Part shown: piece by piece, positions 30,724-42,053 of the stretch | Layout: each line of letters opens with the position of its first letter | How positions within the stretch are numbered: the first letter of the stretch is position 1 | DNA from: Patescibacteria group bacterium | Lineage (GTDB): Bacteria > Patescibacteriota > Patescibacteriia > Buchananbacterales > UBA6539 | Direction: 5' to 3' | NCBI GenBank assembly: GCA_028688055.1 | Contig: JAQTYZ010000001.1 | Span: 114,910-178,909, forward strand | Length of the DNA: 64,000 nucleotides | Translations under genes and position numbers: made by a program | The notes under the pieces: generated by a model | The model's database searches: none | Told to the model about the DNA's origin: nothing | The model's input: only the letters and a program-made list of their open reading frames with translations

Positions 30724-32190
30724 ATGGCCAAAATCGACATTAATCCCGCTGATAAATTATTTAAATGGGGGCCGATTGATGGCAAATTGATCTATCCCGA
30801 TTTTTTTAATCAAACTTTTGTCCGGTTTCAAAAAGCCGGTTTTGTCAGTTGGCCGGATGTTTTGTGGTTGATGCAAAAAGAAAAGATGCTCTGCGTGGTG
30901 GATAATGATAATTTGTATGAATGTGGCCGGCAAAATTTTCAAAAAACAGCCCTTGATTCAAAAAAATTTAACGCCGTTTTTCGTGATTGGCAAAAGAATT
31001 TGCGGCAATGGTTACGATTTCAAAAAACGCTGTCGGCCGCAAAGCTTAGACACGCCAGTGATCAAGATTTAGCTAATATTTTTCAACAATGGGTTGAATT
31101 GTATCTTAAGTTTTGGACATTGGGGCTGTTACCGGAAGTGGCCAACTGGGGCGGTGAAATAATTTTAAATGAAAGATTAAAAAAGCTGCCATTAAAATCA
31201 GAACATGATTTTATTTTTTTGTTGGAAAAATTATCCGCGCCCGAAAAATTATCATTTTATCGGGAGGCGGAATTGGGCCTGCTAAAATTAAAAAAGCAAA
31301 TTCACGCCAGGGATTTTGAAAAAAAATTAGAGCTTCATCAACAAAAGTTTTTTTGGATTTTAAACAGTTATCATCATACAAAAATTTTATCGCTACAATA
31401 TTTTCGCCGCGAATTGCGGGCGATTGGGCCTAATTATGAGCGCAAATTGTCTGAGCTAATGAAATATACTAGCCTAGTTAAGCGCGAAAAGCAAAAGCTG
31501 ATTCGACAATATCATATTGACCCGCTAACGGCCAAAGTGGCCCAAAGGCTCGCTTTTTCGATTTGGTGGCAGGATTTACGGAAATATTACATCTTTTTAG
31601 CCAACCATTATGTCGATTTGTTCCTTCAGGAATTCTCGCGGCGACTTGGGGTTGATTTTGATGATTTGCATTATTATGGTGTCGAAGAGATGATGCGGTT
31701 GGCCAAAAGCCACAAAAAGCTTGCCAAATCAGAAATTAACCACCGGAAAAATAATTTGGTTGTCCACTACTCCCAAAATGCTAATTCATTGGAGTACATT
31801 TCTGGCAGAAAAGCCGCGGACATTATTAAAAAATATACGGCTATAAAAGTTGAGAAGAATTTGACCACTTTAAGTGGTACCGTGGTTAGTAAGGGGCAAA
31901 AGGTGCAAGCTCTGGTAACAGTGATTTTATCAGCTAAAGATTTTACTAAGATGAGGCCTGGTGATATTTTGGTGACAGCGATGACATCACCCGATTACAT
32001 TATGGTAATAAAGAAAGCGGCCGCCATTGTCACCGATGAAGGCGGGTTAACTAGTCACGCGGCCATTGTGTCACGGGAACTTGGTATTCCCTGTATTGTT
32101 GGAACAAAAGTAGCAACACGAGTTTTGAAAGATGGTGATTTAGTTGAGGTCGATACGATCAAAGGGGTGGTTAAAAAAATTGCTAAATGA
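30724..32190 (+). CDS. PEP-utilising-enzyme mobile (swivel phosphohistidine) domain protein, paralog 1: ~390-aa helical N-terminal region + C-terminal swivel domain
   Basis: C-terminus [50 protein letters not shown] is the PpsA/PPDK/enzyme-I phosphohistidine swivel motif (GGxTSHAAIxxRELGIP). The protein has neither an ATP-grasp domain nor a PEP-binding TIM barrel. Confidence 0.7.
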
Positions 32191-32193
32191 AGT

Positions 32194-33654
32194 ATGTCTA
32201 AAACATGTGTCAATTGGAGACTCTATGAGCGTAATAATATTTATCCGCAGAGTCTTTCGCCGTATCTTGAATTGGTTAATTTGTCACAGAGTAAAAAGTA
32301 TCCTTATATTGCTAATCATCACGAAGTTTTGACTTTTCAAGATGGTTATCTTTGGTGGGCGCGTGATGCCGACGCCATTGAAAAAGACGCTCGCAGATGG
32401 GTTCGAGATTGGCTTTATTCAAAAAGCGAATTAAAAGATCTTTTAATACTTTTTGATTGCCTAGGGCATAGTAATCAAAATATTTTGCCATCTTTAGCAA
32501 AGATAAAAGTCAAAAATATTGGTAGTGATGAATTATATGGTTTATATGAAAAAACAAAAAATATCTTTTTAAGTGGAGTTATTTTTGATGAATACGCCAT
32601 TGATCTTTTTGATGATTTTTCTGGTAATATTTTTTCCGAAAAAATTCGTGGCTATACCAAGGGACTAATTAGCCAAGAAGATATTAGACAATTATTAAGG
32701 CCAGCGTCGATTACCAAAAGTCTTCAATATCGAAAAAAACTTTTAGAGTTTTCGTTTGTAAAAAATGTTCTCCCTTCTGAGTTACAAAAAATTGCCAATC
32801 AGTTTTGTTGGATTGCGATGGGTTGGGATGGAAGCAACGAATTAACTGTTGCTAAACTAAAAAGTGACCTAGCTAAGCTGAAAAAAGTAAGTATCAATGA
32901 TCGTACCAAGGAACTCAAAAAAATTAAGAACTTTGGCCAATCGGTACGCCTTGAAAGAAAAAGGATATTGAAAAAATATAAGTTGCCTCAAAAAAAATTG
33001 AAACCGCTTTTTTACCTTTTGGATATTTTTGTTGTTTTCCACGACCGGCGCAAAGAGCATCAAATGAACTGTAATAAAATTATTTTTCCGGTTTTAAAAG
33101 AAATTGCCAAAAGGTTTAAAGTGGATTACGGTGACCTGCTGTTTTATTTTAATTCCGACATCAAAAATTTATGTTTGGACAGAAAAAAATTAAGCGCTTC
33201 AGAAATTAAAAAAAGGAAAAACGGGATTACCTGGGTAATCAGTGACAGAAAAGCTAGAATTTTTTTAGGTCTGAGGGCAAAAAAAGTATTAAATATGTTA
33301 GTTCTTTCAAGCTTTAAAGCAGATAATGTTTTGGAAATTTCAGGCGAAACAGCTTCGGGCGGAAAAGTTAACGGTAAAGTTTTTGTAACTAAGAGTTCTA
33401 AACTGGCGCTTAAAAATTTCAAAAAAGGTGATATTTTAGTAACGACGATGACAACGGTGGATTATTTGCCGGTGATGAAATTAGCCAGTGCTATTGTAAC
33501 TGATGATGGGGGATTAACCTGTCACGCGGCGATTATTTCAAGGGAGTTAGGTATTCCTTGTGTGGTTGCCACTAAAATTGCCACTCAGATTTTTAAAACC
33601 GGTGATAGGGTTGAGGTTGATGCTGATCAGGGGGTAATTAAAAAGTTAACATAA
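32194..33654 (+). CDS. PEP-utilising swivel-domain protein, paralog 2
   Basis: C-terminus [50 protein letters not shown]; N-terminal region diverged from paralog 1; 3-nt gap from the upstream gene. Confidence 0.7.
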   Translation: MSKTCVNWRLYERNNIYPQSLSPYLELVNLSQSKKYPYIANHHEVLTFQDGYLWWARDADAIEKDARRWVRDWLYSKSELKDLLILFDCLGHSNQNILPSLAKIKVKNIGSDELYGLYEKTKNIFLSGVIFDEYAIDLFDDFSGNIFSEKIRGYTKGLISQEDIRQLLRPASITKSLQYRKKLLEFSFVKNVLPSELQKIANQFCWIAMGWDGSNELTVAKLKSDLAKLKKVSINDRTKELKKIKNFGQSVRLERKRILKKYKLPQKKLKPLFYLLDIFVVFHDRRKEHQMNCNKIIFPVLKEIAKRFKVDYGDLLFYFNSDIKNLCLDRKKLSASEIKKRKNGITWVISDRKARIFLGLRAKKVLNMLVLSSFKADNVLEISGETASGGKVNGKVFVTKSSKLALKNFKKGDILVTTMTTVDYLPVMKLASAIVTDDGGLTCHAAIISRELGIPCVVATKIATQIFKTGDRVEVDADQGVIKKLT

Positions 33655-33657
33655 CTT

Positions 33658-35244
33658 ATGACGTCGATGCAGTTTAAAAAGGGTTTAATTAAAAAAGACC
33701 TAGAAAAATTAAAGCAGAAAGAATGGTATCACCAAAGGTTTGATGGTTGTCCCAACCTTATTTATTTAATTGGTCAGATGGAGCTGGAGCCAGAATCGAG
33801 AAAAGAAGTTGGTGGAGAATTCATCAATCATTTGATAATTTTTAATAATGATCGGGTTGATTGGTATATTGATTTAGCTGACATTAATCGTGTCTCCAAT
33901 ATTTTTTTTAAAAAAAGTTATCGCCAGTCCTTGGGAATCGGAAAAAGGATTATGAAGAAATGGGATAATAATAAAGTAGCTTTTCATAAAAAGTGCTTGG
34001 AATTGGATAAAATAAATTTAACTAAGCTTACCAATAATGAATTGAAAAATTTATATGAAGATTTTTTCAGGACGTATTTTGGTTGGACCAGCATGAGTTC
34101 TGTGATTGATGGTTTTGCCTTGGGGAGTGATCAATTTATTGAAACAGAGTTAAAAAAATTTTTAAGTAGCCAAAAAATTGCCACTGGTCAAGGAATATTT
34201 TTTTCAACATTGACGGCGCCGACAAACCAATCATTTATCAATGAGGCCGAAATCTCATTATTGAAAGTAGCTCTAAAAATTTATCAGAATCAGAAATTAA
34301 GAAAAATTTTTATTGCCAACAATGTCAATTCAATTTATAAAAAAATTAATCATTTTCCGGTTGAATATCAGGCCCTGCGAAAACATCAACATAATTTTTT
34401 TTGGGGTAAAAACAATTATGTTGATAGCAATATTTTAAGTATTTCTTTTTTTATTAAGGAAATTAAACAATTATTGAAAAACAATATTGACGTATCAGCT
34501 CAGATCAAAAGAATTGAAACGGTGCCAATCAAAAATAAAATTGATAAACAAAAATTAATAAAAAAATTAAAGTTGCCCAAGTTTCTTCTTAATCTAATCG
34601 AAATATCAGAAACATTTACCTACTGGCAAGATGAGCGAAAAAAATATACTTTTTTGGCAACTTATTATGGTTCAACTTTTTTAGCTGAAATCGGCAGACG
34701 TTTTGACTACCCCTTGGTTGAAATGAAATATTTATTTTTTTCGGAAATTATAACATTATTTACTGGCCAGGGGCATTATGTCTCTAGGCAAGAAGCGCAG
34801 CAGCGTAGAAAATTTAGTTTTCATTATGATCATCGGCAAGCTTATGAGATAATCACCGGTGCGGCGGCTCGTGAGGTTTCGAAAGCCATCTTTAAAGTTG
34901 GTGTTAAAAAAAGTATTAATGATTTCCGTGGGTTAAGTGCCTCGAGTGGTAAGGTGCGAGGAATTGTTAAAATCGTCACCAGCGCTCACGAAATAAATAA
35001 AGTTAATCGGGGAGATATTTTAGTAGCCGTAATGACTCGGCCAGATTATATTGTAGGTATGAAAAAAGCCGCGGCCATAATTACTAATGAGGGCGGCGTT
35101 ACTTGTCATGCCGCTATTGTCGCTAGAGAGTTAGGGATTCCGTGTGTCATTGGCACTAAAATTGCCACCGAAGTTTTAAGCGATGGTGATTTAGTGGATG
35201 TTAATGGTAATCATGGGGTGGTGACTATTATAAAAAGAAAATAA
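33658..35244 (+). CDS. PEP-utilising swivel-domain protein, paralog 3
   Basis: C-terminus GDILVAVMTRPDYIVGMKKAAAIITNEGGVTCHAAIVARELGIPCVIGTK; 528 aa; 3-nt gap from the upstream gene. Confidence 0.7.
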   Translation: MTSMQFKKGLIKKDLEKLKQKEWYHQRFDGCPNLIYLIGQMELEPESRKEVGGEFINHLIIFNNDRVDWYIDLADINRVSNIFFKKSYRQSLGIGKRIMKKWDNNKVAFHKKCLELDKINLTKLTNNELKNLYEDFFRTYFGWTSMSSVIDGFALGSDQFIETELKKFLSSQKIATGQGIFFSTLTAPTNQSFINEAEISLLKVALKIYQNQKLRKIFIANNVNSIYKKINHFPVEYQALRKHQHNFFWGKNNYVDSNILSISFFIKEIKQLLKNNIDVSAQIKRIETVPIKNKIDKQKLIKKLKLPKFLLNLIEISETFTYWQDERKKYTFLATYYGSTFLAEIGRRFDYPLVEMKYLFFSEIITLFTGQGHYVSRQEAQQRRKFSFHYDHRQAYEIITGAAAREVSKAIFKVGVKKSINDFRGLSASSGKVRGIVKIVTSAHEINKVNRGDILVAVMTRPDYIVGMKKAAAIITNEGGVTCHAAIVARELGIPCVIGTKIATEVLSDGDLVDVNGNHGVVTIIKRK

Positions 35245-35261: not shown

Positions 35262-36038
35262 ATGGAGAGTTTACATAATCGTGATTCTATTATTGCTCGT
35301 CACGCCGACAAGGGGTCATGGCAGATAAGTGAAGAATCGTTGACACAAATTTTTCCAGCCAAACAAGCAGCCTTGGTGGTGGAAGTTTTGCAAAATGACT
35401 TTCCGGAAATGATTGAAGCCGGTGAAACGCCCCTTACCCTTGAAGGAATTCAGCGTAGCTTAAAATTGGCTGAAAATCTTTATGATAAGCTTCCAGCGGA
35501 ATCAATTTTAGTGACACTTGATAGTGGTAAGGACAGGGCTAAATTATGTCGTCATCTGGTGACTGAACGTTTAAGCCAGCTGGAAGGAAAAGAAAAAATA
35601 ATTGATATGCTGGAAATTGATGAAAAGGAAATTGTGAGTTTATTGGCCGATTCAAATCCTGATACCTGGGCTCCTTATGAACTGATGATGAAAAATGATG
35701 GCCTTGATGAAGGTGAGGCCATATTTCGGTGGTTAAATGATATGAATGATCCAAGCATTGATGTGGCGCCTGAAAAATCACCCAAAGAATCAGCAGAAAG
35801 ATATCGACAATTAGTTAAGCTGATCCATGGCAGCATAACACAGGCGCAGGATGGCAATTCGCATCAACGGCAATCGCCAGTAATTTTGTTTGGCGTCGGT
35901 CATTCTGGGTCGTTAGGGCAGGCACTTTATGAAGATCGCGGGGGCATAACAGCAGAAGAGGTGCCGCATTTTTGTGAGCAATTTCAATTTAATAATGATG
36001 GAAAAATTGTTGCTTCAGAAAAAGTTGATTTAAATTGA
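35262..36038 (+). CDS. Histidine-phosphatase superfamily protein (phosphoglycerate-mutase/SixA-like fold)
   Basis: N-terminal RHADKG (RHG-type catalytic motif), PLTLEGIQRSLKLAENL (LTxxGxxQAxxLG pattern) and C-terminal ILFGVGHSGSLGQAL (second catalytic His). Confidence 0.55.
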   Translation: MESLHNRDSIIARHADKGSWQISEESLTQIFPAKQAALVVEVLQNDFPEMIEAGETPLTLEGIQRSLKLAENLYDKLPAESILVTLDSGKDRAKLCRHLVTERLSQLEGKEKIIDMLEIDEKEIVSLLADSNPDTWAPYELMMKNDGLDEGEAIFRWLNDMNDPSIDVAPEKSPKESAERYRQLVKLIHGSITQAQDGNSHQRQSPVILFGVGHSGSLGQALYEDRGGITAEEVPHFCEQFQFNNDGKIVASEKVDLN

Positions 36039-36218
36039 GTAATTGTCAGATGTTTGTCGAAGCGGTAAAATCATTAAGGACGAAATTTCCTGATTTTTCC
36101 TATCATTTGTATCACATTTTAAATGGTAATTCAGACATAAGCGACAAAGGGGACTACTAGGAAATTGGAAGTTTGTATGACTTTTTAGCTAACGAGATGA
36201 GTATTAATACCTAATGAA

Positions 36219-37184
36219 ATGACTAAATATATTTTACCTTTTTTTAAAATTTCTAAAAAAGATGCAGCAATCGCCGGCGGTAAGGGCGCGTCGCTGGGCG
36301 AAATGACCCAGACAGGTATTCCGGTGCCATCGGGGTTTGTGATTGTTGCTGACGCGTATAATTATTTTATTGATAGCGTTGCGAAAAATGAAGTCGCCGA
36401 AGTCGGGCTAGACATTAAAGCCCAGCTGAAAGAGGTTAATTTTAAAGACACTAATTCTATTGATAAAGCGTCGAACGTTATTCGTGATATTTTGCACGAT
36501 ACCAAAATTCCCAGTGACTTAGCTGATCAAATTAAAAATGAATTTAAGAAATTAAATACAAAATTTGTTGCCGTGCGCTCATCGGCCACGGCCGAAGATT
36601 CATCTATTGCTTCATGGGCCGGGGAGCTGGAGACATATTTGAATACGACTGAAAAAACATTACTCCAAAATGTCCGGCGCTGTTGGTCGTCGCTTTTTAC
36701 GCCGCGGGCGATTTTTTATCGCTATGAAAAAAAGATGTCAGATCAACACGTGGCGGTAGCGGTGGTGGTGCAAAAAATGGTGGAGTCAGAAATTTCCGGC
36801 ATTACTTTTACTGTTCATCCGGTGACCAAAGACAAAAATCAAATGATTATTGAGGCTGGGTTTGGGTTAGGCGAAGCCATTGTGTCCGGCCAAATTACGC
36901 CGGACAGTTATGTCGTTGGTAAAAAAGATTTTAGTATTTTTGATATTAATGTCGCCGAACAAAAGAAAATGTTGGTTCGCAAAGGCGCGGGCGGCGATAA
37001 TGTTTGGAAAACCATTGCTAAATCAAAACAGGAGAGCCAAAAGTTGACGGGCAGACAAATTATCGAGCTGGCAAAAATTTGTGCAAATATCGAGAAACAT
37101 TACAAAAAGCCGCAAGATATTGAGTGGGCATTTGCTAAAGGAAAATTTTATATCACTCAATCTCGGCCGATCACCACTTTGTAG
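36219..37184 (+). CDS. PEP synthase/pyruvate-phosphate-dikinase N-terminal nucleotide-binding (ATP-grasp, PPDK_N) domain protein
   Basis: GGKGASLGEMTQTGIPVPSGFVI, VRSSATAEDSSIASWAGELETYLN and DIEWAFAKGKFYITQSRPITTL align motif-by-motif with the N-terminal domain of E. coli PpsA. The ORF ends at TAG 37182-37184, in the same frame as the next gene. Confidence 0.8.
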   Translation: MTKYILPFFKISKKDAAIAGGKGASLGEMTQTGIPVPSGFVIVADAYNYFIDSVAKNEVAEVGLDIKAQLKEVNFKDTNSIDKASNVIRDILHDTKIPSDLADQIKNEFKKLNTKFVAVRSSATAEDSSIASWAGELETYLNTTEKTLLQNVRRCWSSLFTPRAIFYRYEKKMSDQHVAVAVVVQKMVESEISGITFTVHPVTKDKNQMIIEAGFGLGEAIVSGQITPDSYVVGKKDFSIFDINVAEQKKMLVRKGAGGDNVWKTIAKSKQESQKLTGRQIIELAKICANIEKHYKKPQDIEWAFAKGKFYITQSRPITTL

Positions 37185-37217
37185 CCTAAATTTTTTATTA
37201 TTAATTTTTTAAAAATT

Positions 37218-38705
37218 ATGGTAGGAGCAGTAATGAGGTCGGGAAAATGGCGTATTAAGCCGTCGGGTCAGTTGCCAATTTTTTTGAGATTTATGATTAA
37301 TTCTAGTTTTGATAAAGCAATTTCGAATAAAGCGGGGATTAAACATAATATTGCTAATCGTGTTTATCTTAATCACATGATGTATTGGCCAGCTTCAGAG
37401 TATGACGCTTTTGAGAAGGAGATAGTTGACCATTTAAAAAAACAAGACGGTTGGTTGGAAAAATATTGCTATCGTGAGCTAAAAAAATCAGAGCATTTAT
37501 ATAACCTAGGTTTAAAATTAGAGAAAGTAGATTGGGCTAAAAAAACTAATGCAGAGATGGAGAAAATTTTAGACAATCTGCTTGGTTTATATCGCGAATT
37601 AGCTTGCCCTTGGTATGCCCAATATCCAATTGATATTTACTATGAAAGTGTTATTGAAGAAAAACTTTTAACATTAATCCGAGCCGATCATCATGATTTT
37701 AGAAAATTTGTTTTAATTTTTACTGATCCGAAAGAAATGACTGATGTTGCCAAAGAGCGGTGGGAATTGATGAAATTAGCTAAAAAACTTAAACAGAATG
37801 GTGAGAAATTGGTTAATTTGTCTCAGATAGCAGAAGCTAGCATAAAAAAGCATCTGTCTATGTTTGCGTATATTAATCGCGGTTTGGCAACCAGTAAACC
37901 ATATACCCGAAAAGATATAATTTCTAGAATTAAGGAAGCATGGGCAGCCAAGGAAGGTTTAGACGAACTAATTAGTTATAGCTCACCGAAAAAAATCATT
38001 GAAGATTATAAATGGGCTTTAAACCAAGTTAAGCCAGACGGTATCTTTAAAAAAATTATTGATCAGGCTCGTTTGCATTCTTACACCAGAAATCGTCGAG
38101 TAGAAGCACTTTTTTTGGCTGACTATGGAGCCAGTTTTATGTATCATGAAATTGCTAAAAGGAGTAAATTTAATCCCAATTGGATAATGGAAGTAAGTAT
38201 TCCGGAAATGTATGAAGCGTTGCATGGACAAAAATTGCCAAATAAGGTTGAAATGCAAAGACGCCTTAAAAACTATGCCATGATTGTCAGAAATGCTAAT
38301 ACTAGACTTATCACCGATCCGGTTGAAATAAAAAAAATGGAAAAAAAATATATAGTAAAAAATGATCAAGTTAATCAGATTCAAGGTCGAGTAGCCTGTT
38401 TGGGCGGAGTCATACGCGGCCGAGCAAAAATTTGTCTGGATAAATCAGATATTGGTAAAGTTAAGAGAGGTGATGTGTTAGTAGCGCAGTTTACCACGCC
38501 TGATTTTGTACCAGCGATGGAACGCGCGGTGGCTATTGTGGCTGATCAAGGCGGTTTGTCATCGCATGCCGCTATCGTTTCTCGTGAGTTAGGTGTTCCT
38601 TGCGTGATGGCAACTGAGAATGGTACAAGGGTGATTAAGGATAATGATCTAATAGAAGTTAATGCTCGCACCGGTGTTATCAAAATAATAAAGCGAGCCA
38701 AATGA
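37218..38705 (+). CDS. PEP-utilising swivel-domain protein, paralog 4 (in frame with the upstream ATP-grasp gene; SD-like AGGAG 5 nt before the second ATG at 37233)
   Basis: C-terminus [50 protein letters not shown]. It lies 33 nt downstream of the PPDK_N gene in the same reading frame. Confidence 0.7.
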   Translation: MVGAVMRSGKWRIKPSGQLPIFLRFMINSSFDKAISNKAGIKHNIANRVYLNHMMYWPASEYDAFEKEIVDHLKKQDGWLEKYCYRELKKSEHLYNLGLKLEKVDWAKKTNAEMEKILDNLLGLYRELACPWYAQYPIDIYYESVIEEKLLTLIRADHHDFRKFVLIFTDPKEMTDVAKERWELMKLAKKLKQNGEKLVNLSQIAEASIKKHLSMFAYINRGLATSKPYTRKDIISRIKEAWAAKEGLDELISYSSPKKIIEDYKWALNQVKPDGIFKKIIDQARLHSYTRNRRVEALFLADYGASFMYHEIAKRSKFNPNWIMEVSIPEMYEALHGQKLPNKVEMQRRLKNYAMIVRNANTRLITDPVEIKKMEKKYIVKNDQVNQIQGRVACLGGVIRGRAKICLDKSDIGKVKRGDVLVAQFTTPDFVPAMERAVAIVADQGGLSSHAAIVSRELGVPCVMATENGTRVIKDNDLIEVNARTGVIKIIKRAK

Positions 38706-39304
38706 TAAAAGCAGTATTTTTTGACTCCGGTAGAGTCTTGGTTCAGGAAGATTATGTGTCTTGTATTGCTGAATACGAAGAAAAGCTTGGTATCAAAAAG
38801 GGAAAATTATATGAGTCTGTCCATGATAGGCTATACTGGACTGATTTTACTCTAGGTAAAATCACGGAAGAAAATTATTTCAATCAGCTGGCTAATGATT
38901 TTGTGGGGAGTTTAGACATCGAAAAGCTTAAAGAAGTAATTTATGATAATTTTATTCTTAATACTGAGTTAGCGGATTATCTTATAACTTTGAAAGATAG
39001 ATTTACATTGGGGATAATTTCTAATAATCCCAAAGAATGGTTTGATTATTGTTCAAAGATATTTGACTGGCAAGATATTTTTGACGTCAAGGCGGTTTCA
39101 GGTTATCTACATATTCGTAAACCTGATATAAGAATATTTCAGCAGGCCTTAGAAATTGCTAAAATAAATGGCAATGAAGCAATTTACGTTGACGACAGGC
39201 CTGATCGGGTGGACGGTGCGAAGGCTCTGGGTATGAAAATTATAATTTATAGCAATGTTGAAAAATTTAAAATTGATTTACATAATATTATAAATAATAA
39301 ATAA
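38702..39304 (+). CDS. HAD-superfamily phosphatase, YihX-like subfamily (DxGxV motif I)
   Basis: AVFFDSGRVLVQED matches E. coli YihX motif I (FDLGNVIV). Motif IV YVDDRPDRVDGAKALGMKII. 200 aa; overlaps the upstream stop by 4 nt. Confidence 0.65.
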   Translation: MIKAVFFDSGRVLVQEDYVSCIAEYEEKLGIKKGKLYESVHDRLYWTDFTLGKITEENYFNQLANDFVGSLDIEKLKEVIYDNFILNTELADYLITLKDRFTLGIISNNPKEWFDYCSKIFDWQDIFDVKAVSGYLHIRKPDIRIFQQALEIAKINGNEAIYVDDRPDRVDGAKALGMKIIIYSNVEKFKIDLHNIINNK

Positions 39305-39308
39305 ATTT

Positions 39309-40280
39309 ATGATGACAAGGCTAAGTCATGAGACAGGATATGGGTCGGAACAAGAAAAAAAACCAGAAACTCAAGTTGACCTTTATTTAATGAGGCATTC
39401 AAATCGTTTCGCTGGTAAAGGTGAATGGGAAGATCCGAATACTGGGGAAAAGATTGTCTTTGATGATACGGAAAATCTAACCCCAGAAGGCAAACTGCGC
39501 GCGCGAGAATTTGGTCAGTTGATAGGCCATGGTCATGACCACATTGTTAGTATTGGCAGTATGGAGGCCAGGGCAGCTGAGACTGGTGCGGATATTGAGG
39601 CGGGAGCCGAAGAGCCAATCAATATTAGAGATCAAGACGGTGGTCGAGTCGTTAATCAGGCCAGGGGAATAACTTATAGAGAATTTGGGTCAGAGACTCA
39701 AGGTGTCTTAAAAAACATTAAGCCAATGATTAATGAGCAGGCTGGTCAGCATCCTCAATATGGCATTTTGCCTCCTGAAGAAAGGGCATCGGTTCGGCAA
39801 GAAGCCCAAGAGGTAGGTTTAAGAGAGGCCATGAAAGATTCTGGAATTGTTGAAGAAGCGGCTGAAGGTGTAGCTTATAATTTATATACTTTACGAGAAA
39901 TAGCTAAAGATGTTAAGCCAGATTTAAAACCAGCCTTACCCTTGGTTAGTCACGGTATTTATAATGAATCTTTTTTAAAGAAAGCGTTGATAATTGAAAA
40001 TAGTGATGGTACTCACCAAGCCGGCTTTGAAGACGTTGATGAAATCGGCGGATTTTTTGCGCCAGCTGAGGCTTTTAAGATCAGAATAATACGGGACGCG
40101 AATGGCCACGAACGGTATGAGTGCGAATTTACCGACCCCAAACGACAAGAATTATTCAGAGATAAGCAGTTGTCAGTTGATTGGACAATAATTGAAGAAT
40201 TATTTCATCGGTATGATGAAAGATTAGCTCAGCGAGAGGGTCGCCAACCACATTGGCCTAAAGTTGAGAAAGCTAATTAA
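39309..40280 (+). CDS. Histidine-phosphatase superfamily protein (second paralog)
   Basis: LYLMRHSNR (RHG-type motif), LTPEGKLRAREFGQLIG and C-terminal LPLVSHGIYNESF (SHG motif). Confidence 0.6.
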   Translation: MMTRLSHETGYGSEQEKKPETQVDLYLMRHSNRFAGKGEWEDPNTGEKIVFDDTENLTPEGKLRAREFGQLIGHGHDHIVSIGSMEARAAETGADIEAGAEEPINIRDQDGGRVVNQARGITYREFGSETQGVLKNIKPMINEQAGQHPQYGILPPEERASVRQEAQEVGLREAMKDSGIVEEAAEGVAYNLYTLREIAKDVKPDLKPALPLVSHGIYNESFLKKALIIENSDGTHQAGFEDVDEIGGFFAPAEAFKIRIIRDANGHERYECEFTDPKRQELFRDKQLSVDWTIIEELFHRYDERLAQREGRQPHWPKVEKAN

Positions 40281-40321: not shown

Positions 40322-41767
40322 ATGAAAAGAAATAAAAGCTTTAAACCGAAATGGGATGTTGATGAAGCCGAAGCCGTATTTTGGATTTGTCCGGAAGCGG
40401 CTTGGGCCATGACAGTGGGTATGCGAAAAATTTATGGCTTTGGGTTTAATCGAAATTTGGTAATTTTGGAGAAAAATAAGCCTTTTAAATGGTGCACTTT
40501 AGTTGAAGACAATGTCATCGTTGGCAATAAATGTTTTAATAAATTTAAAAATAAAAAATTTCGTAATAAAATTAAACAAGGTTTAGCTAAGGTAAATTTA
40601 AAGCTGGAGCGAAAAATATTAAAATATCGGTCGCAAAGTCCGGCCGCAATGTCGGTTAGTGCCTTGTTTAGTTATTTAGATTTTTTTACGGAATGCTATC
40701 AAGAAATGTTTAGTTATGGTTTTTTTGCCGAAGCTTTTGACTATGTGCTGCCCCAAATTTTTGAGAAAGAGTTCAAAAAATATAAACTTTCCCGTGATGA
40801 TTTCTCTGATTTATCGACTATCCCTGATGTCAGCTATTTAAATTTAGAAACCCAAAAGTTGATTAGATTAGCGATTAAAAAGAGCAGCGGTCAGAAAATC
40901 GGCAATGATTTAGACGATCATTTTAAAAAATATGAATGGCTTGCAACCGGTCATAATGGTAAGAAAATTATTACCATTAATTATTTTTTAGCAAGAATTG
41001 GTGAATTAATCAGGCAGCATCAGAATTTATCTAAAGAGCTTAAACGTCTGAGAGATTTTAAGATTAATTTGAAAAAACGGAAAAGCCAAATCATAAAAAA
41101 ATATGATTTTGTTAAAGGAGCTTTACAATTAATCAATATTATTGATGACATCGGGCCGTTGCGTGACCGGAGAAAAGAAATTTTTGTTAAGTCAATCTTT
41201 TATGCCGATGATGTCCGCGACGAACTGGCAAAAAGATTCGGCTATCATTTATCAGACCTGCAATTTTTTACCAGCCAGGAACTCATATTATTGAGCAAGG
41301 GAGAAAAACTTGATCGAGCTGAGTTAAAAAGGAGAAAAGAATTTATAATTTTAGATGTTGATTATCAAAAGCATTTATTCAAAGTTTATAGTGGCAAAAG
41401 TGTTTCGAAATTAATTCCTAAAGAATTCAAAAAAATTCATGACCAATTAAATGAGCTTACCGGGACGGTGGCTTCAAGTGGTAAAGTGTCCGGAGAAGTT
41501 AAAGTTATCTTCGGTGAAAGCGGCTTTCACCGAATGAGCCAAGGCAATATTTTAGTTACTGGCATGACCCGGCCTGAAATGTTGCCAATAATGAAAATGG
41601 CGGCGGCAATTATCACTGATGAAGGCGGCCTGACTTGCCATGCTGCTATTGTTTCCAGAGAATTAAACATCCCTTGTATTGTCGGCACCAAAATTGCCAC
41701 CAAAGTCTTGAAAGACGGCGATAAGGTAGTAGTCAACGCGACTAACGGCACTATCAAAATAATTTAG
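40322..41767 (+). CDS. PEP-utilising swivel-domain protein, paralog 5
   Basis: C-terminus [50 protein letters not shown]; 481 aa. Confidence 0.7.
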   Translation: MKRNKSFKPKWDVDEAEAVFWICPEAAWAMTVGMRKIYGFGFNRNLVILEKNKPFKWCTLVEDNVIVGNKCFNKFKNKKFRNKIKQGLAKVNLKLERKILKYRSQSPAAMSVSALFSYLDFFTECYQEMFSYGFFAEAFDYVLPQIFEKEFKKYKLSRDDFSDLSTIPDVSYLNLETQKLIRLAIKKSSGQKIGNDLDDHFKKYEWLATGHNGKKIITINYFLARIGELIRQHQNLSKELKRLRDFKINLKKRKSQIIKKYDFVKGALQLINIIDDIGPLRDRRKEIFVKSIFYADDVRDELAKRFGYHLSDLQFFTSQELILLSKGEKLDRAELKRRKEFIILDVDYQKHLFKVYSGKSVSKLIPKEFKKIHDQLNELTGTVASSGKVSGEVKVIFGESGFHRMSQGNILVTGMTRPEMLPIMKMAAAIITDEGGLTCHAAIVSRELNIPCIVGTKIATKVLKDGDKVVVNATNGTIKII

Positions 41768-41774
41768 TTTTTTT

Positions 41775-42053
41775 ATGAAGAGGGTCACGCTAATAATTAG
41801 CGGCGAAGTTCAGGCTGTTGGATTTAGGACAGCGGCCGTAAGGGAAGCGAACAAGCTTGGATTGACCGGGTATGTGAAAAATTTACCTGCTGGTTCAGTC
41901 GAGGTAGTTGCTGAGGGCGAGGAGGGCAACTTGAATAATTTTATCATTTGGTGTTATAATGGTGTTGGACTGGCAACAGTTTCCAATATAAAAACCAGCT
42001 GGACGGAGGCGACTGGAGTTTTTTCTAATTTTGTGATAGTATTTGAGAGTTAA
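41775..42053 (+). CDS. Acylphosphatase
   Basis: 92 aa; ISGEVQAVGFRTAA (V-x-G-x-V-Q-G-V-x-F-R signature) and GYVKNLPAGSVEVVAEGEE (G-x-V-x-N-x-x-D-G-x-V motif). Confidence 0.75.
   Translation: MKRVTLIISGEVQAVGFRTAAVREANKLGLTGYVKNLPAGSVEVVAEGEEGNLNNFIIWCYNGVGLATVSNIKTSWTEATGVFSNFVIVFES

Follow-up and report, generated by a model that had tools for sequence, protein, structure and literature searches.

A stand-alone ATP-grasp gene and a neighbouring swivel gene in a patescibacterial genome probably encode a two-component RPH-like dikinase

When two open reading frames (ORFs) share one frame and are held apart by a single stop codon, are they one broken gene or two working ones, and what do they encode? 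This question is raised by positions 36219-38705 of a 64,000-nt stretch of DNA from a Patescibacteria group bacterium (GenBank assembly GCA_028688055.1, contig JAQTYZ010000001.1, forward-strand positions 114,910 to 178,909), which was analysed as a whole and is referred to here as the window. At this locus an ATP-grasp gene (ORF1) is followed by a phosphohistidine swivel gene (ORF2, here named sw4), and a first-pass annotation had described the pair as either a split gene or an interrupted 828-codon gene resembling rifampin phosphotransferase (RPH). We conclude, with a probability of roughly 0.8, that the pair is a two-component, RPH-like small-molecule dikinase of the HpeHI/PpsAB type, encoded by two intact genes. 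The features of the pair are as follows.

36219..37184, + strand: stand-alone ATP-grasp (nucleotide-binding) component, HpeI/PpsB-like, 321 aa; PF01326 PPDK_N match of 8.7e-95 over aa 18-320
37182..37184, + strand: TAG stop of the ATP-grasp gene, at the family-wide conserved C-terminus
37185..37217, + strand: intergenic spacer of 33 nt, 94% A+T, unconserved; the counterpart at the related locus L086 is 62 nt
37218..38705, + strand: sw4 (ORF2), RPH RIF-binding-domain-like region plus C-terminal phosphohistidine swivel, HpeH/PpsA-like, 495 aa, predicted catalytic His450

Results

One gene or two

The coordinates, the shared frame, the TAG at 37182-84 and the 33-nt gap described in the first-pass annotation were all reproduced from the sequence. 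The two starts lie 999 nt apart (37218-36219 = 3x333), and the spacer at 37185-37217 contains no in-frame stop. In the window, 14 of 49 same-strand gene junctions are in frame, about one third as expected, and 39% of spacer shuffles were free of an in-frame stop, which puts the prior for the whole configuration at about 13%. Among the in-frame cases are the sw1/sw2 and sw2/sw3 junctions, at which complete paralogues of sw4 stand one stop plus one codon apart. Because in-frame junctions match chance and the shuffles give a prior of this size, the frame shared by ORF1 and sw4 is not meaningful; it is a coincidence. Reassignment of the TAG codon was ruled out, as TAG ends 10 of the 59 genes in the window.

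We next turned to relatives, whose loci and proteins are labelled L and P, respectively. Database copies of the two window proteins (P0001 and P0121, both 100% identical) are annotated as two proteins. The best 120 ATP-grasp homologues, 66-81% identical, are all stand-alone, carry PF01326 only and measure ~310-370 aa, almost all of them ~310-335 aa. In 114 of 118 of these homologues, ...RPITTL-stop is the exact C-terminus, and the window TAG therefore sits at the natural end of the family. More than 110 sw4 orthologues (50-78% identical) are stand-alone proteins of ~490-500 aa with PF00391 only. PPDK_N occurs in none of the best 120 sw4 matches, and no single ORF spans both parts among the best 120 matches for either part. 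Of the 80 loci from a contig scan seeded on swivel-domain peptides, only 6 were true orthologous loci of sw4; the others were mostly bona fide phosphoenolpyruvate (PEP) synthases of 750-800 aa and provided no evidence for a fused RPH-type state. Two long sw4 matches, P0119 and P0120, were considered as ATP-grasp fusions and rejected, being tandem swivel-swivel read-throughs. Tandem swivel-swivel ORFs, comprising these two and representatives of 900-1000 aa, may stem from one-stop junctions like those between sw1, sw2 and sw3.

The closest sw4 relative, at L086 (78% identical), alone shares the window gene order. Its contig opens with the last ATP-grasp codons (ITQSRPITTL-TAA), and sw4 begins 62 nt later in another frame, behind a spacer with several stops in the ATP-grasp frame. 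At the nine further orthologous loci whose upstream sequence could be read (L001-L004, L006, L087-L089 and L005, whose contig begins at sw4), ATP-grasp lies directly 5' of sw4 in none. That position is taken either by a different swivel paralogue or by an unrelated 189-322-aa ORF, and the ATP-grasp gene is found 1.6-6 kb downstream of sw4 in L002, L087, L088 and L089 and otherwise beyond the flanks. Among the loci most closely syntenic with the window, ATP-grasp is followed at L082 by an sw5 orthologue (74% identical) in a different frame after a gap of ~14 nt, at L083 and L084 by an acylphosphatase gene with overlapping gene ends, and at L085 by an unrelated 385-aa ORF. A comparison of fused and split states across orthologous loci had been proposed at first pass; it favours two genes and, given the longer spacer of L086, speaks against an interrupted one.

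The N-terminus of sw4 is kept at 10 of 10 orthologous loci as M-x-G/S-A-V-x-x-S-G-x-W-R-I-K-P-S (one residue shorter in L006). Its conserved first Met aligns with ATG 37218, and the Met at 37233 is replaced by Ala or Ser at five of the ten. On the basis of this conservation, and because Met 37233 is variable, we take ATG 37218 to be the true start of sw4. Independent initiation had previously been argued from a Shine-Dalgarno-like string ahead of a second ATG. Both the AGGAG at 37223-27 and the ATG at 37233 exist, but a Shine-Dalgarno role for the string falls away, since it codes for the conserved Gly-Ala-Val of sw4 (GGAGCAGTA), whose codons differ in other genomes; ATG 37233 as the start of sw4 was excluded by the N-terminal conservation. 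The 33-nt spacer itself contains no Shine-Dalgarno sequence, nor any promoter-like or terminator-like site above background, and the ATP-grasp gene and sw4 are probably co-transcribed. The best promoter-like match of the region (TTGTCA-17-TAAAAT, 10/12) lies at 36043-36071, in the 180-nt gap 5' of the ATP-grasp gene; the number of promoter-like sites in the region does not exceed the shuffled background.

Two explanations would join the pair into one coding unit. A single 828-codon RPH-like gene, broken at 37182-84 by a recent nonsense mutation or a sequencing error, would account for the matching frames and for the presence of one stop only between the ORFs, and ORFs that fuse ATP-grasp to swivel modules do exist in distant relatives (described below). 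It is nevertheless hardly credible, given that the stop falls where 114 of 118 stand-alone orthologues have their conserved C-terminus, that the N-terminus of sw4 is conserved and free, with PPDK_N in 0 of its best 120 matches, and that in L086, where the gene order is the same, the spacer measures 62 nt, shifts the frame and contains several stops. The 94% A+T spacer of the window moreover has a non-coding character, which sets it apart from the long, Lys/Glu-rich linker in the fused protein P0269, and sw4 orthologues have no part in the fused relatives. Programmed read-through or recoding of the TAG, which would make some fused 93-kDa protein beside the two separate products, draws on the same matching frames and single TAG. 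We consider it equally improbable: TAG is the terminator of 10 of the 59 window genes, neither the length nor the frame of the spacer is conserved in the closest relative, L086, and no read-through context was identified.

We therefore did not retain the interrupted 828-codon gene. Judged from these comparisons, the ORFs at 36219-37184 and 37218-38705 are two genes, each intact and translated on its own, because both families are stand-alone with conserved termini, the L086 spacer is frame-shifted and the TAG is ordinary. The earlier proposal of two functional genes is upheld on these grounds of stand-alone orthologues and conserved termini, and not on the Shine-Dalgarno argument originally offered for it. 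The split at the boundary between ATP-grasp and substrate domain is ancient and family-wide.

Identity of the two proteins

ORF1 aligns with the N-terminal third only of the models for PEP synthase, RPH and PigC, with scores well short of the cut-offs set for the full-length proteins, and retains Lys22 in GGKGA and Arg120 in VRSSA. In sw4, the PF00391 swivel domain occupies aa 416-486 (3.9e-23), and no Pfam match was found in the first ~400 aa. With the PF01326 match of ORF1, this bears out the previously noted domain order of ATP-grasp, a middle domain of ~400 aa and a swivel His. When a profile of sw4 orthologues was compared with solved structures, sequence matches covered the swivel domain only, the best being PEP synthase 8a8e (1e-33), with RPH at 2e-19. 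Using AlphaFold2, we obtained a model of sw4 with a pLDDT of 89.3 and a pTM of 0.87. Its top Foldseek matches were the RPH-Lm structures 5fbu/5fbt/5hv1 (E 2e-13, TMq ~0.6, ~580 alignment columns), in an alignment that spans the RIF-binding and swivel domains of RPH; PPDK and pyruvate kinase matched over the swivel domain only (TMq ~0.18).

Two features of two-component dikinases were found in the pair. The ATP-grasp (PPDK_N) domain is on a separate polypeptide of 321 aa, and sw4 is predicted by the model to have an RPH RIF-binding-like fold followed by a C-terminal swivel. The swivel His is invariant in all five paralogues of the window. For the HpeH-type motif T/S-x-x-G-G-x-x-x-H, Thr is present at -8 in sw1, sw2, sw3 and sw5, and Ala occupies this position in sw4 and its orthologues.

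Two established families were considered for the pair and rejected. Against the NCBIfam RPH model NF041857, ORF1 and sw4 score 295.9 and 66 bits, respectively, for a cut-off of 999, and RPH membership was rejected on these scores and because there are two genes instead of one polypeptide. The NCBIfam PEP synthase model NF005057 gives 329.6 and 113.9 bits (ORF1 and ORF2) for a cut-off of 598. Membership of PEP synthase or PPDK was rejected on these scores, on the non-central position of the swivel and on the lack of a PEP/pyruvate-binding TIM-barrel domain, for which Pfam gave no match in ORF1, ORF2 or the paralogues.

The closest known counterparts in organisation are HpeHI, CreHI and the phenylphosphate synthase PpsAB, characterised two-component RPH homologues with the same split, in which the ATP-grasp component is HpeI, and its partner HpeH combines a RIF-binding-like domain with a swivel (PMC12167813). 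HpeH, CreH and PpsA are ~45% identical to one another; enzymes of the HpeHI type need both components, form products that include AMP and depend on an essential conserved His, and HpeH alone is able to shuttle phosphate between substrates (PMC12167813). The window pair resembles these systems in combining a stand-alone ATP-grasp protein of ~35-40 kDa with a RIF-binding-like/swivel subunit, with no PEP/pyruvate domain, and by analogy a dikinase mechanism via phosphohistidine would be expected here too. It differs from them in the size of the partner (55 kDa compared with ~71 kDa), in an N-domain without detectable sequence similarity to solved relatives and a swivel closest to bona fide PEP synthase, and in the number of partners per ATP-grasp gene (five here, one there). 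The hosts are also different, being Patescibacteria and DPANN archaea and not degraders of aromatic compounds, as are the neighbouring genes, which encode phosphatases here and carboxylases there.

RPH-Lm consists of an ATP-grasp domain (1-314), a RIF-binding domain (327-754) and a swivel (767-865) (PMC4844700), and the ORF1/ORF2 boundary thus coincides with the first RPH domain boundary. RPH (PDB 5FBS, 5HV1; PMC4844700) has the same domain order over both genes, is the best structural match, with the whole sw4 model covered, and shares the conserved ATP-grasp Lys22. In contrast to the pair, however, RPH is a single chain of ~865 aa, and there is no indication that rifamycin is a substrate of the window pair. 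PEP synthase PpsA and PPDK have homologous ATP-grasp and swivel domains, with the swivel profile reaching 1e-33 to 8a8e, and four window paralogues retain GGxT(S/C)HAA. The window proteins differ in having a helical substrate domain instead of the C-terminal PEP/pyruvate TIM barrel, and in a swivel that is C-terminal, not central as in PEP synthase and PPDK.

By analogy, the pair would belong among the known two-component RPH-like dikinases as a distant member, at best a distant branch, because no PDB sequence match extends outside the swivel domain. Three observations weigh against the assignment: no similarity in sequence could be detected between the N-domain of sw4 and RPH or any solved structure; the likeness of this domain to RPH is at the level of fold only (TM ~0.6, with high rmsd); and sw4 has Ala where the HpeH-type swivel has Thr/Ser, at -8 from the His.

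In the mechanism that we propose from RPH, HpeHI and PpsAB, the 321-aa ATP-grasp protein would bind ATP, and the swivel His (His450 in sw4) would be pyrophosphorylated or phosphorylated at ORF1 via the ATP beta-phosphate. The swivel would then swing back to the partner's own helical substrate-binding domain, with the fold of the RPH RIF-binding domain, and a small molecule bound there would be phosphorylated, yielding AMP, Pi and a phospho-product. As gene counts and polyproteins suggest, a single ATP-grasp protein may serve several sw modules.

A swivel-gene array with one ATP-grasp gene

The pair lies within a longer cluster, whose members outside the sw4 module are listed here.

30724..32190, + strand: sw1, swivel-component paralogue, 488 aa; PF00391 4.9e-27, 23% identical to sw4, His in GGLTSH
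32194..33654, + strand: sw2, swivel-component paralogue, 486 aa; in frame with both sw1 and sw3
33658..35244, + strand: sw3, swivel-component paralogue, 528 aa; L082 orthologue 79% identical
35262..36038, + strand: conserved 258-aa protein between sw3 and ATP-grasp; no Pfam or PADLOC match
40322..41767, + strand: sw5, swivel-component paralogue, 481 aa; PF00391 7.9e-26, L082 orthologue 74% identical
41775..42053, + strand: acylphosphatase at the downstream cluster edge; PF00708 5e-23, link to the system uncertain

Sharing the architecture of sw4, sw1, sw2, sw3 and sw5 are 22-25% identical to it. There is one ATP-grasp gene in the 64-kb window, compared with five swivel genes, and the ratio of 1:5 recurs in L089, with 1:7 in L088 and 1:4 in both L087 and L002. 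L006 and L015 have seven swivel genes each; overall, the number per locus is 0-1 for ATP-grasp genes and 3-7 for swivel genes. When the N-domains of the five window paralogues were searched as a profile, 4,129 representatives at 50% identity reached E <= 1e-3, of which 2,677 reached E <= 1e-10. The best 150 matches are mostly stand-alone proteins of 400-600 aa, and relatives are spread over many Patescibacteria lineages and DPANN archaea. The N-domain family is very large, uncharacterised and mostly from these two groups, and is without a Pfam model.

In three polyproteins, each checked as an uninterrupted ORF under translation table 11, ATP-grasp and swivel modules are joined in one chain. 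P0267 (L090, 2012-8941) is a 2309-aa polyprotein with the order sw-sw-sw-ATP-grasp-sw, and P0377 (L093, 364-4269) a 1301-aa polyprotein with the order sw-sw-ATP-grasp. P0269, of 1836 aa and present in two assemblies (L091, 4001-9511; L092, 471-5981), has the order ATP-grasp-linker-sw-sw-sw, with an ATP-grasp part 59.6% identical to ORF1 and a long, Lys/Glu-rich linker from ATP-grasp to swivel; further swivel genes follow it. None of the three contains an sw4 orthologue, and their linkers are unlike the window spacer. Such chains speak for a link in function between the two kinds of module, with a stoichiometry of one to many, and they show that the fusion state is labile across the wider family.

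Because swivel genes outnumber ATP-grasp genes and the polyproteins fuse one ATP-grasp module with 2-4 swivel modules, the data suggest that one ATP-grasp protein charging several substrate-specific modules is the most likely organisation. A fuller hub-and-spoke scheme, in which one ATP-grasp 'charger' would pyrophosphorylate the swivel His of at least five substrate-specific carrier-kinase modules, is offered tentatively, at slightly less than even odds. Two facts count against sharing of this kind. At L083 and L084 the ATP-grasp gene has no swivel gene within 8 kb upstream, and its partners must lie elsewhere in the genome or be absent; furthermore, the count in our own case covers 64 kb, and more ATP-grasp genes may exist elsewhere in the genome.

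An alternative is that ATP-grasp and sw4 are mere neighbours, with the ATP-grasp protein acting alone or with another partner and the swivel proteins phosphorylated from another donor. The adjacency of ATP-grasp and sw4 is unconserved, L083 and L084 lack a nearby swivel gene, and the ability of HpeH alone to shuttle phosphate between substrates (PMC12167813) would fit such a separation. We regard it as unlikely, since the ATP-grasp gene is inside a swivel cluster or at its edge in the window, L002, L082, L085, L087, L088 and L089, natural fusions join the two kinds of module in three different orders, no PEP-binding domain is present, and the characterised homologues require both components (PMC12167813). 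The two-component dikinase remains the preferred reading of the pair.

Several further observations concern the cluster. The genes sw1, sw2 and sw3 (30724-35244) all lie in one frame, separated by TGA and then TAA, each plus a single codon. Orthologues of the protein at 35262-36038 occur inside swivel clusters at L082 (3655-4344, 75%) and L087 (6573-7331, 42%), are ~230-260 aa long and have no family match. A NicX/peptidase-M29-like gene stands directly 5' of ATP-grasp in L082 (6623-7996) and L088 (14367-15665) and is absent from the window. The ATP-grasp proteins whose genes overlap an acylphosphatase gene (L083, 8001-9235; L084, 1200-2434) are 79% identical to that of the window. In P0254, a swivel polyprotein of 1836 aa, a PF01515 phosphate acetyl/butyryl transferase domain (4e-70) is placed between modules; together with the acylphosphatase at 41775-42053, it hints at possible acyl-phosphate chemistry. 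Membership of an anti-phage defence system was rejected, as a PADLOC search with seven cluster proteins returned no match.

The sw4 module and its ancestry

Two further genes travel with sw4.

38702..39304, + strand: HAD-IA family phosphatase, conserved sw4 partner; PF13419, PF00702 and NCBIfam HAD-IA matches
39309..40280, + strand: divergent histidine-phosphatase-superfamily protein, 323 aa, last of the three sw4-module genes; annotated hypothetical

The start of the HAD gene overlaps the sw4 stop (ATGA). At 9 of 10 orthologous loci an HAD gene lies directly 3' of sw4, the exception being L087, and in the metagenomic relative P0080 (696 aa) sw4 and HAD are fused. The protein encoded at 39309-40280 gave no Pfam or NCBIfam match; its LMRH..R motif and His215 are invariant, and some homologues match PF00300. 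Its AlphaFold2 model (pLDDT 88.5) is placed by Foldseek closest to histidine acid phosphatases (1rpa, 6e-9, TM ~0.5). A word-indexed search found 12 homologues only. The orthologue follows the HAD gene in L001, L004, L086, L088 and L089, and in L087 a weaker match lies directly 3' of sw4. As sw4 travels with HAD and histidine-phosphatase-like genes, its product probably enters a phospho-intermediate pathway, in which the two phosphatases might have a later phospho-intermediate as their substrate or serve to recycle the product. Against such a role, a kinase beside two phosphatases is not self-evidently a pathway.

The three-gene module varies in position, lying between ATP-grasp and sw5 in the window and upstream of ATP-grasp in L089; in L082, ATP-grasp abuts sw5 directly. 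Gene order indicates that the adjacency of sw4 and ATP-grasp is a local rearrangement, common to the window and L086 only. The swivel motif of sw4 (38540-38570) reads ADQGGLSSH, with neither Thr/Ser at -8 nor Thr at -2, the latter being the regulatory site in PEP synthase. In sw1, sw2, sw3 and sw5 both residues are retained within the PEP-synthase-like T-D/N-E/D-G-G-x-T-S/C-H, and the motif of sw4 appears to be a derived form.

It had been suggested that sw4, as the one paralogue linked to ATP-grasp, is the ancestral copy left from a split RPH-like gene, from which the other paralogues derive. Within the window sw4 is indeed the only paralogue adjoining ATP-grasp, and it forms the best conserved orthogroup, with 56-78% identity compared with 28-47% for other paralogues in the same loci. 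The linkage, however, is lineage-specific (0 of 9 other loci, and sw5 as the ATP-grasp neighbour in L082), and the swivel motif departs from the PEP-synthase-like motif of the other four. We consider the ancestral status of sw4 very unlikely.

Discussion

Chance alone yields in-frame neighbours and Shine-Dalgarno-like strings in compact, AT-rich genomes, and both call for caution when a gene is to be declared broken. Two-component RPH-like dikinases, recently recognised, extend into Patescibacteria and DPANN archaea, with arrays there of one ATP-grasp gene and many divergent substrate modules. Full-text literature searches found no description of this dikinase family in the Candidate Phyla Radiation (CPR), and the sole match on CPR was a passing count of 'rph' matches in a resistome survey; the organisation of one ATP-grasp gene with many partners, together with its polyprotein relatives, is an undescribed variant.

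If one ATP-grasp protein does serve many modules, the annotations 'PEP synthase', 'PEP-utilizing enzyme' and possibly 'rph' in these genomes would be misleading. The arrangement would give minimal genomes a modular route to phosphorylate many small molecules, and symbionts with small genomes could trap or activate several scavenged metabolites via one shared ATP-binding subunit.

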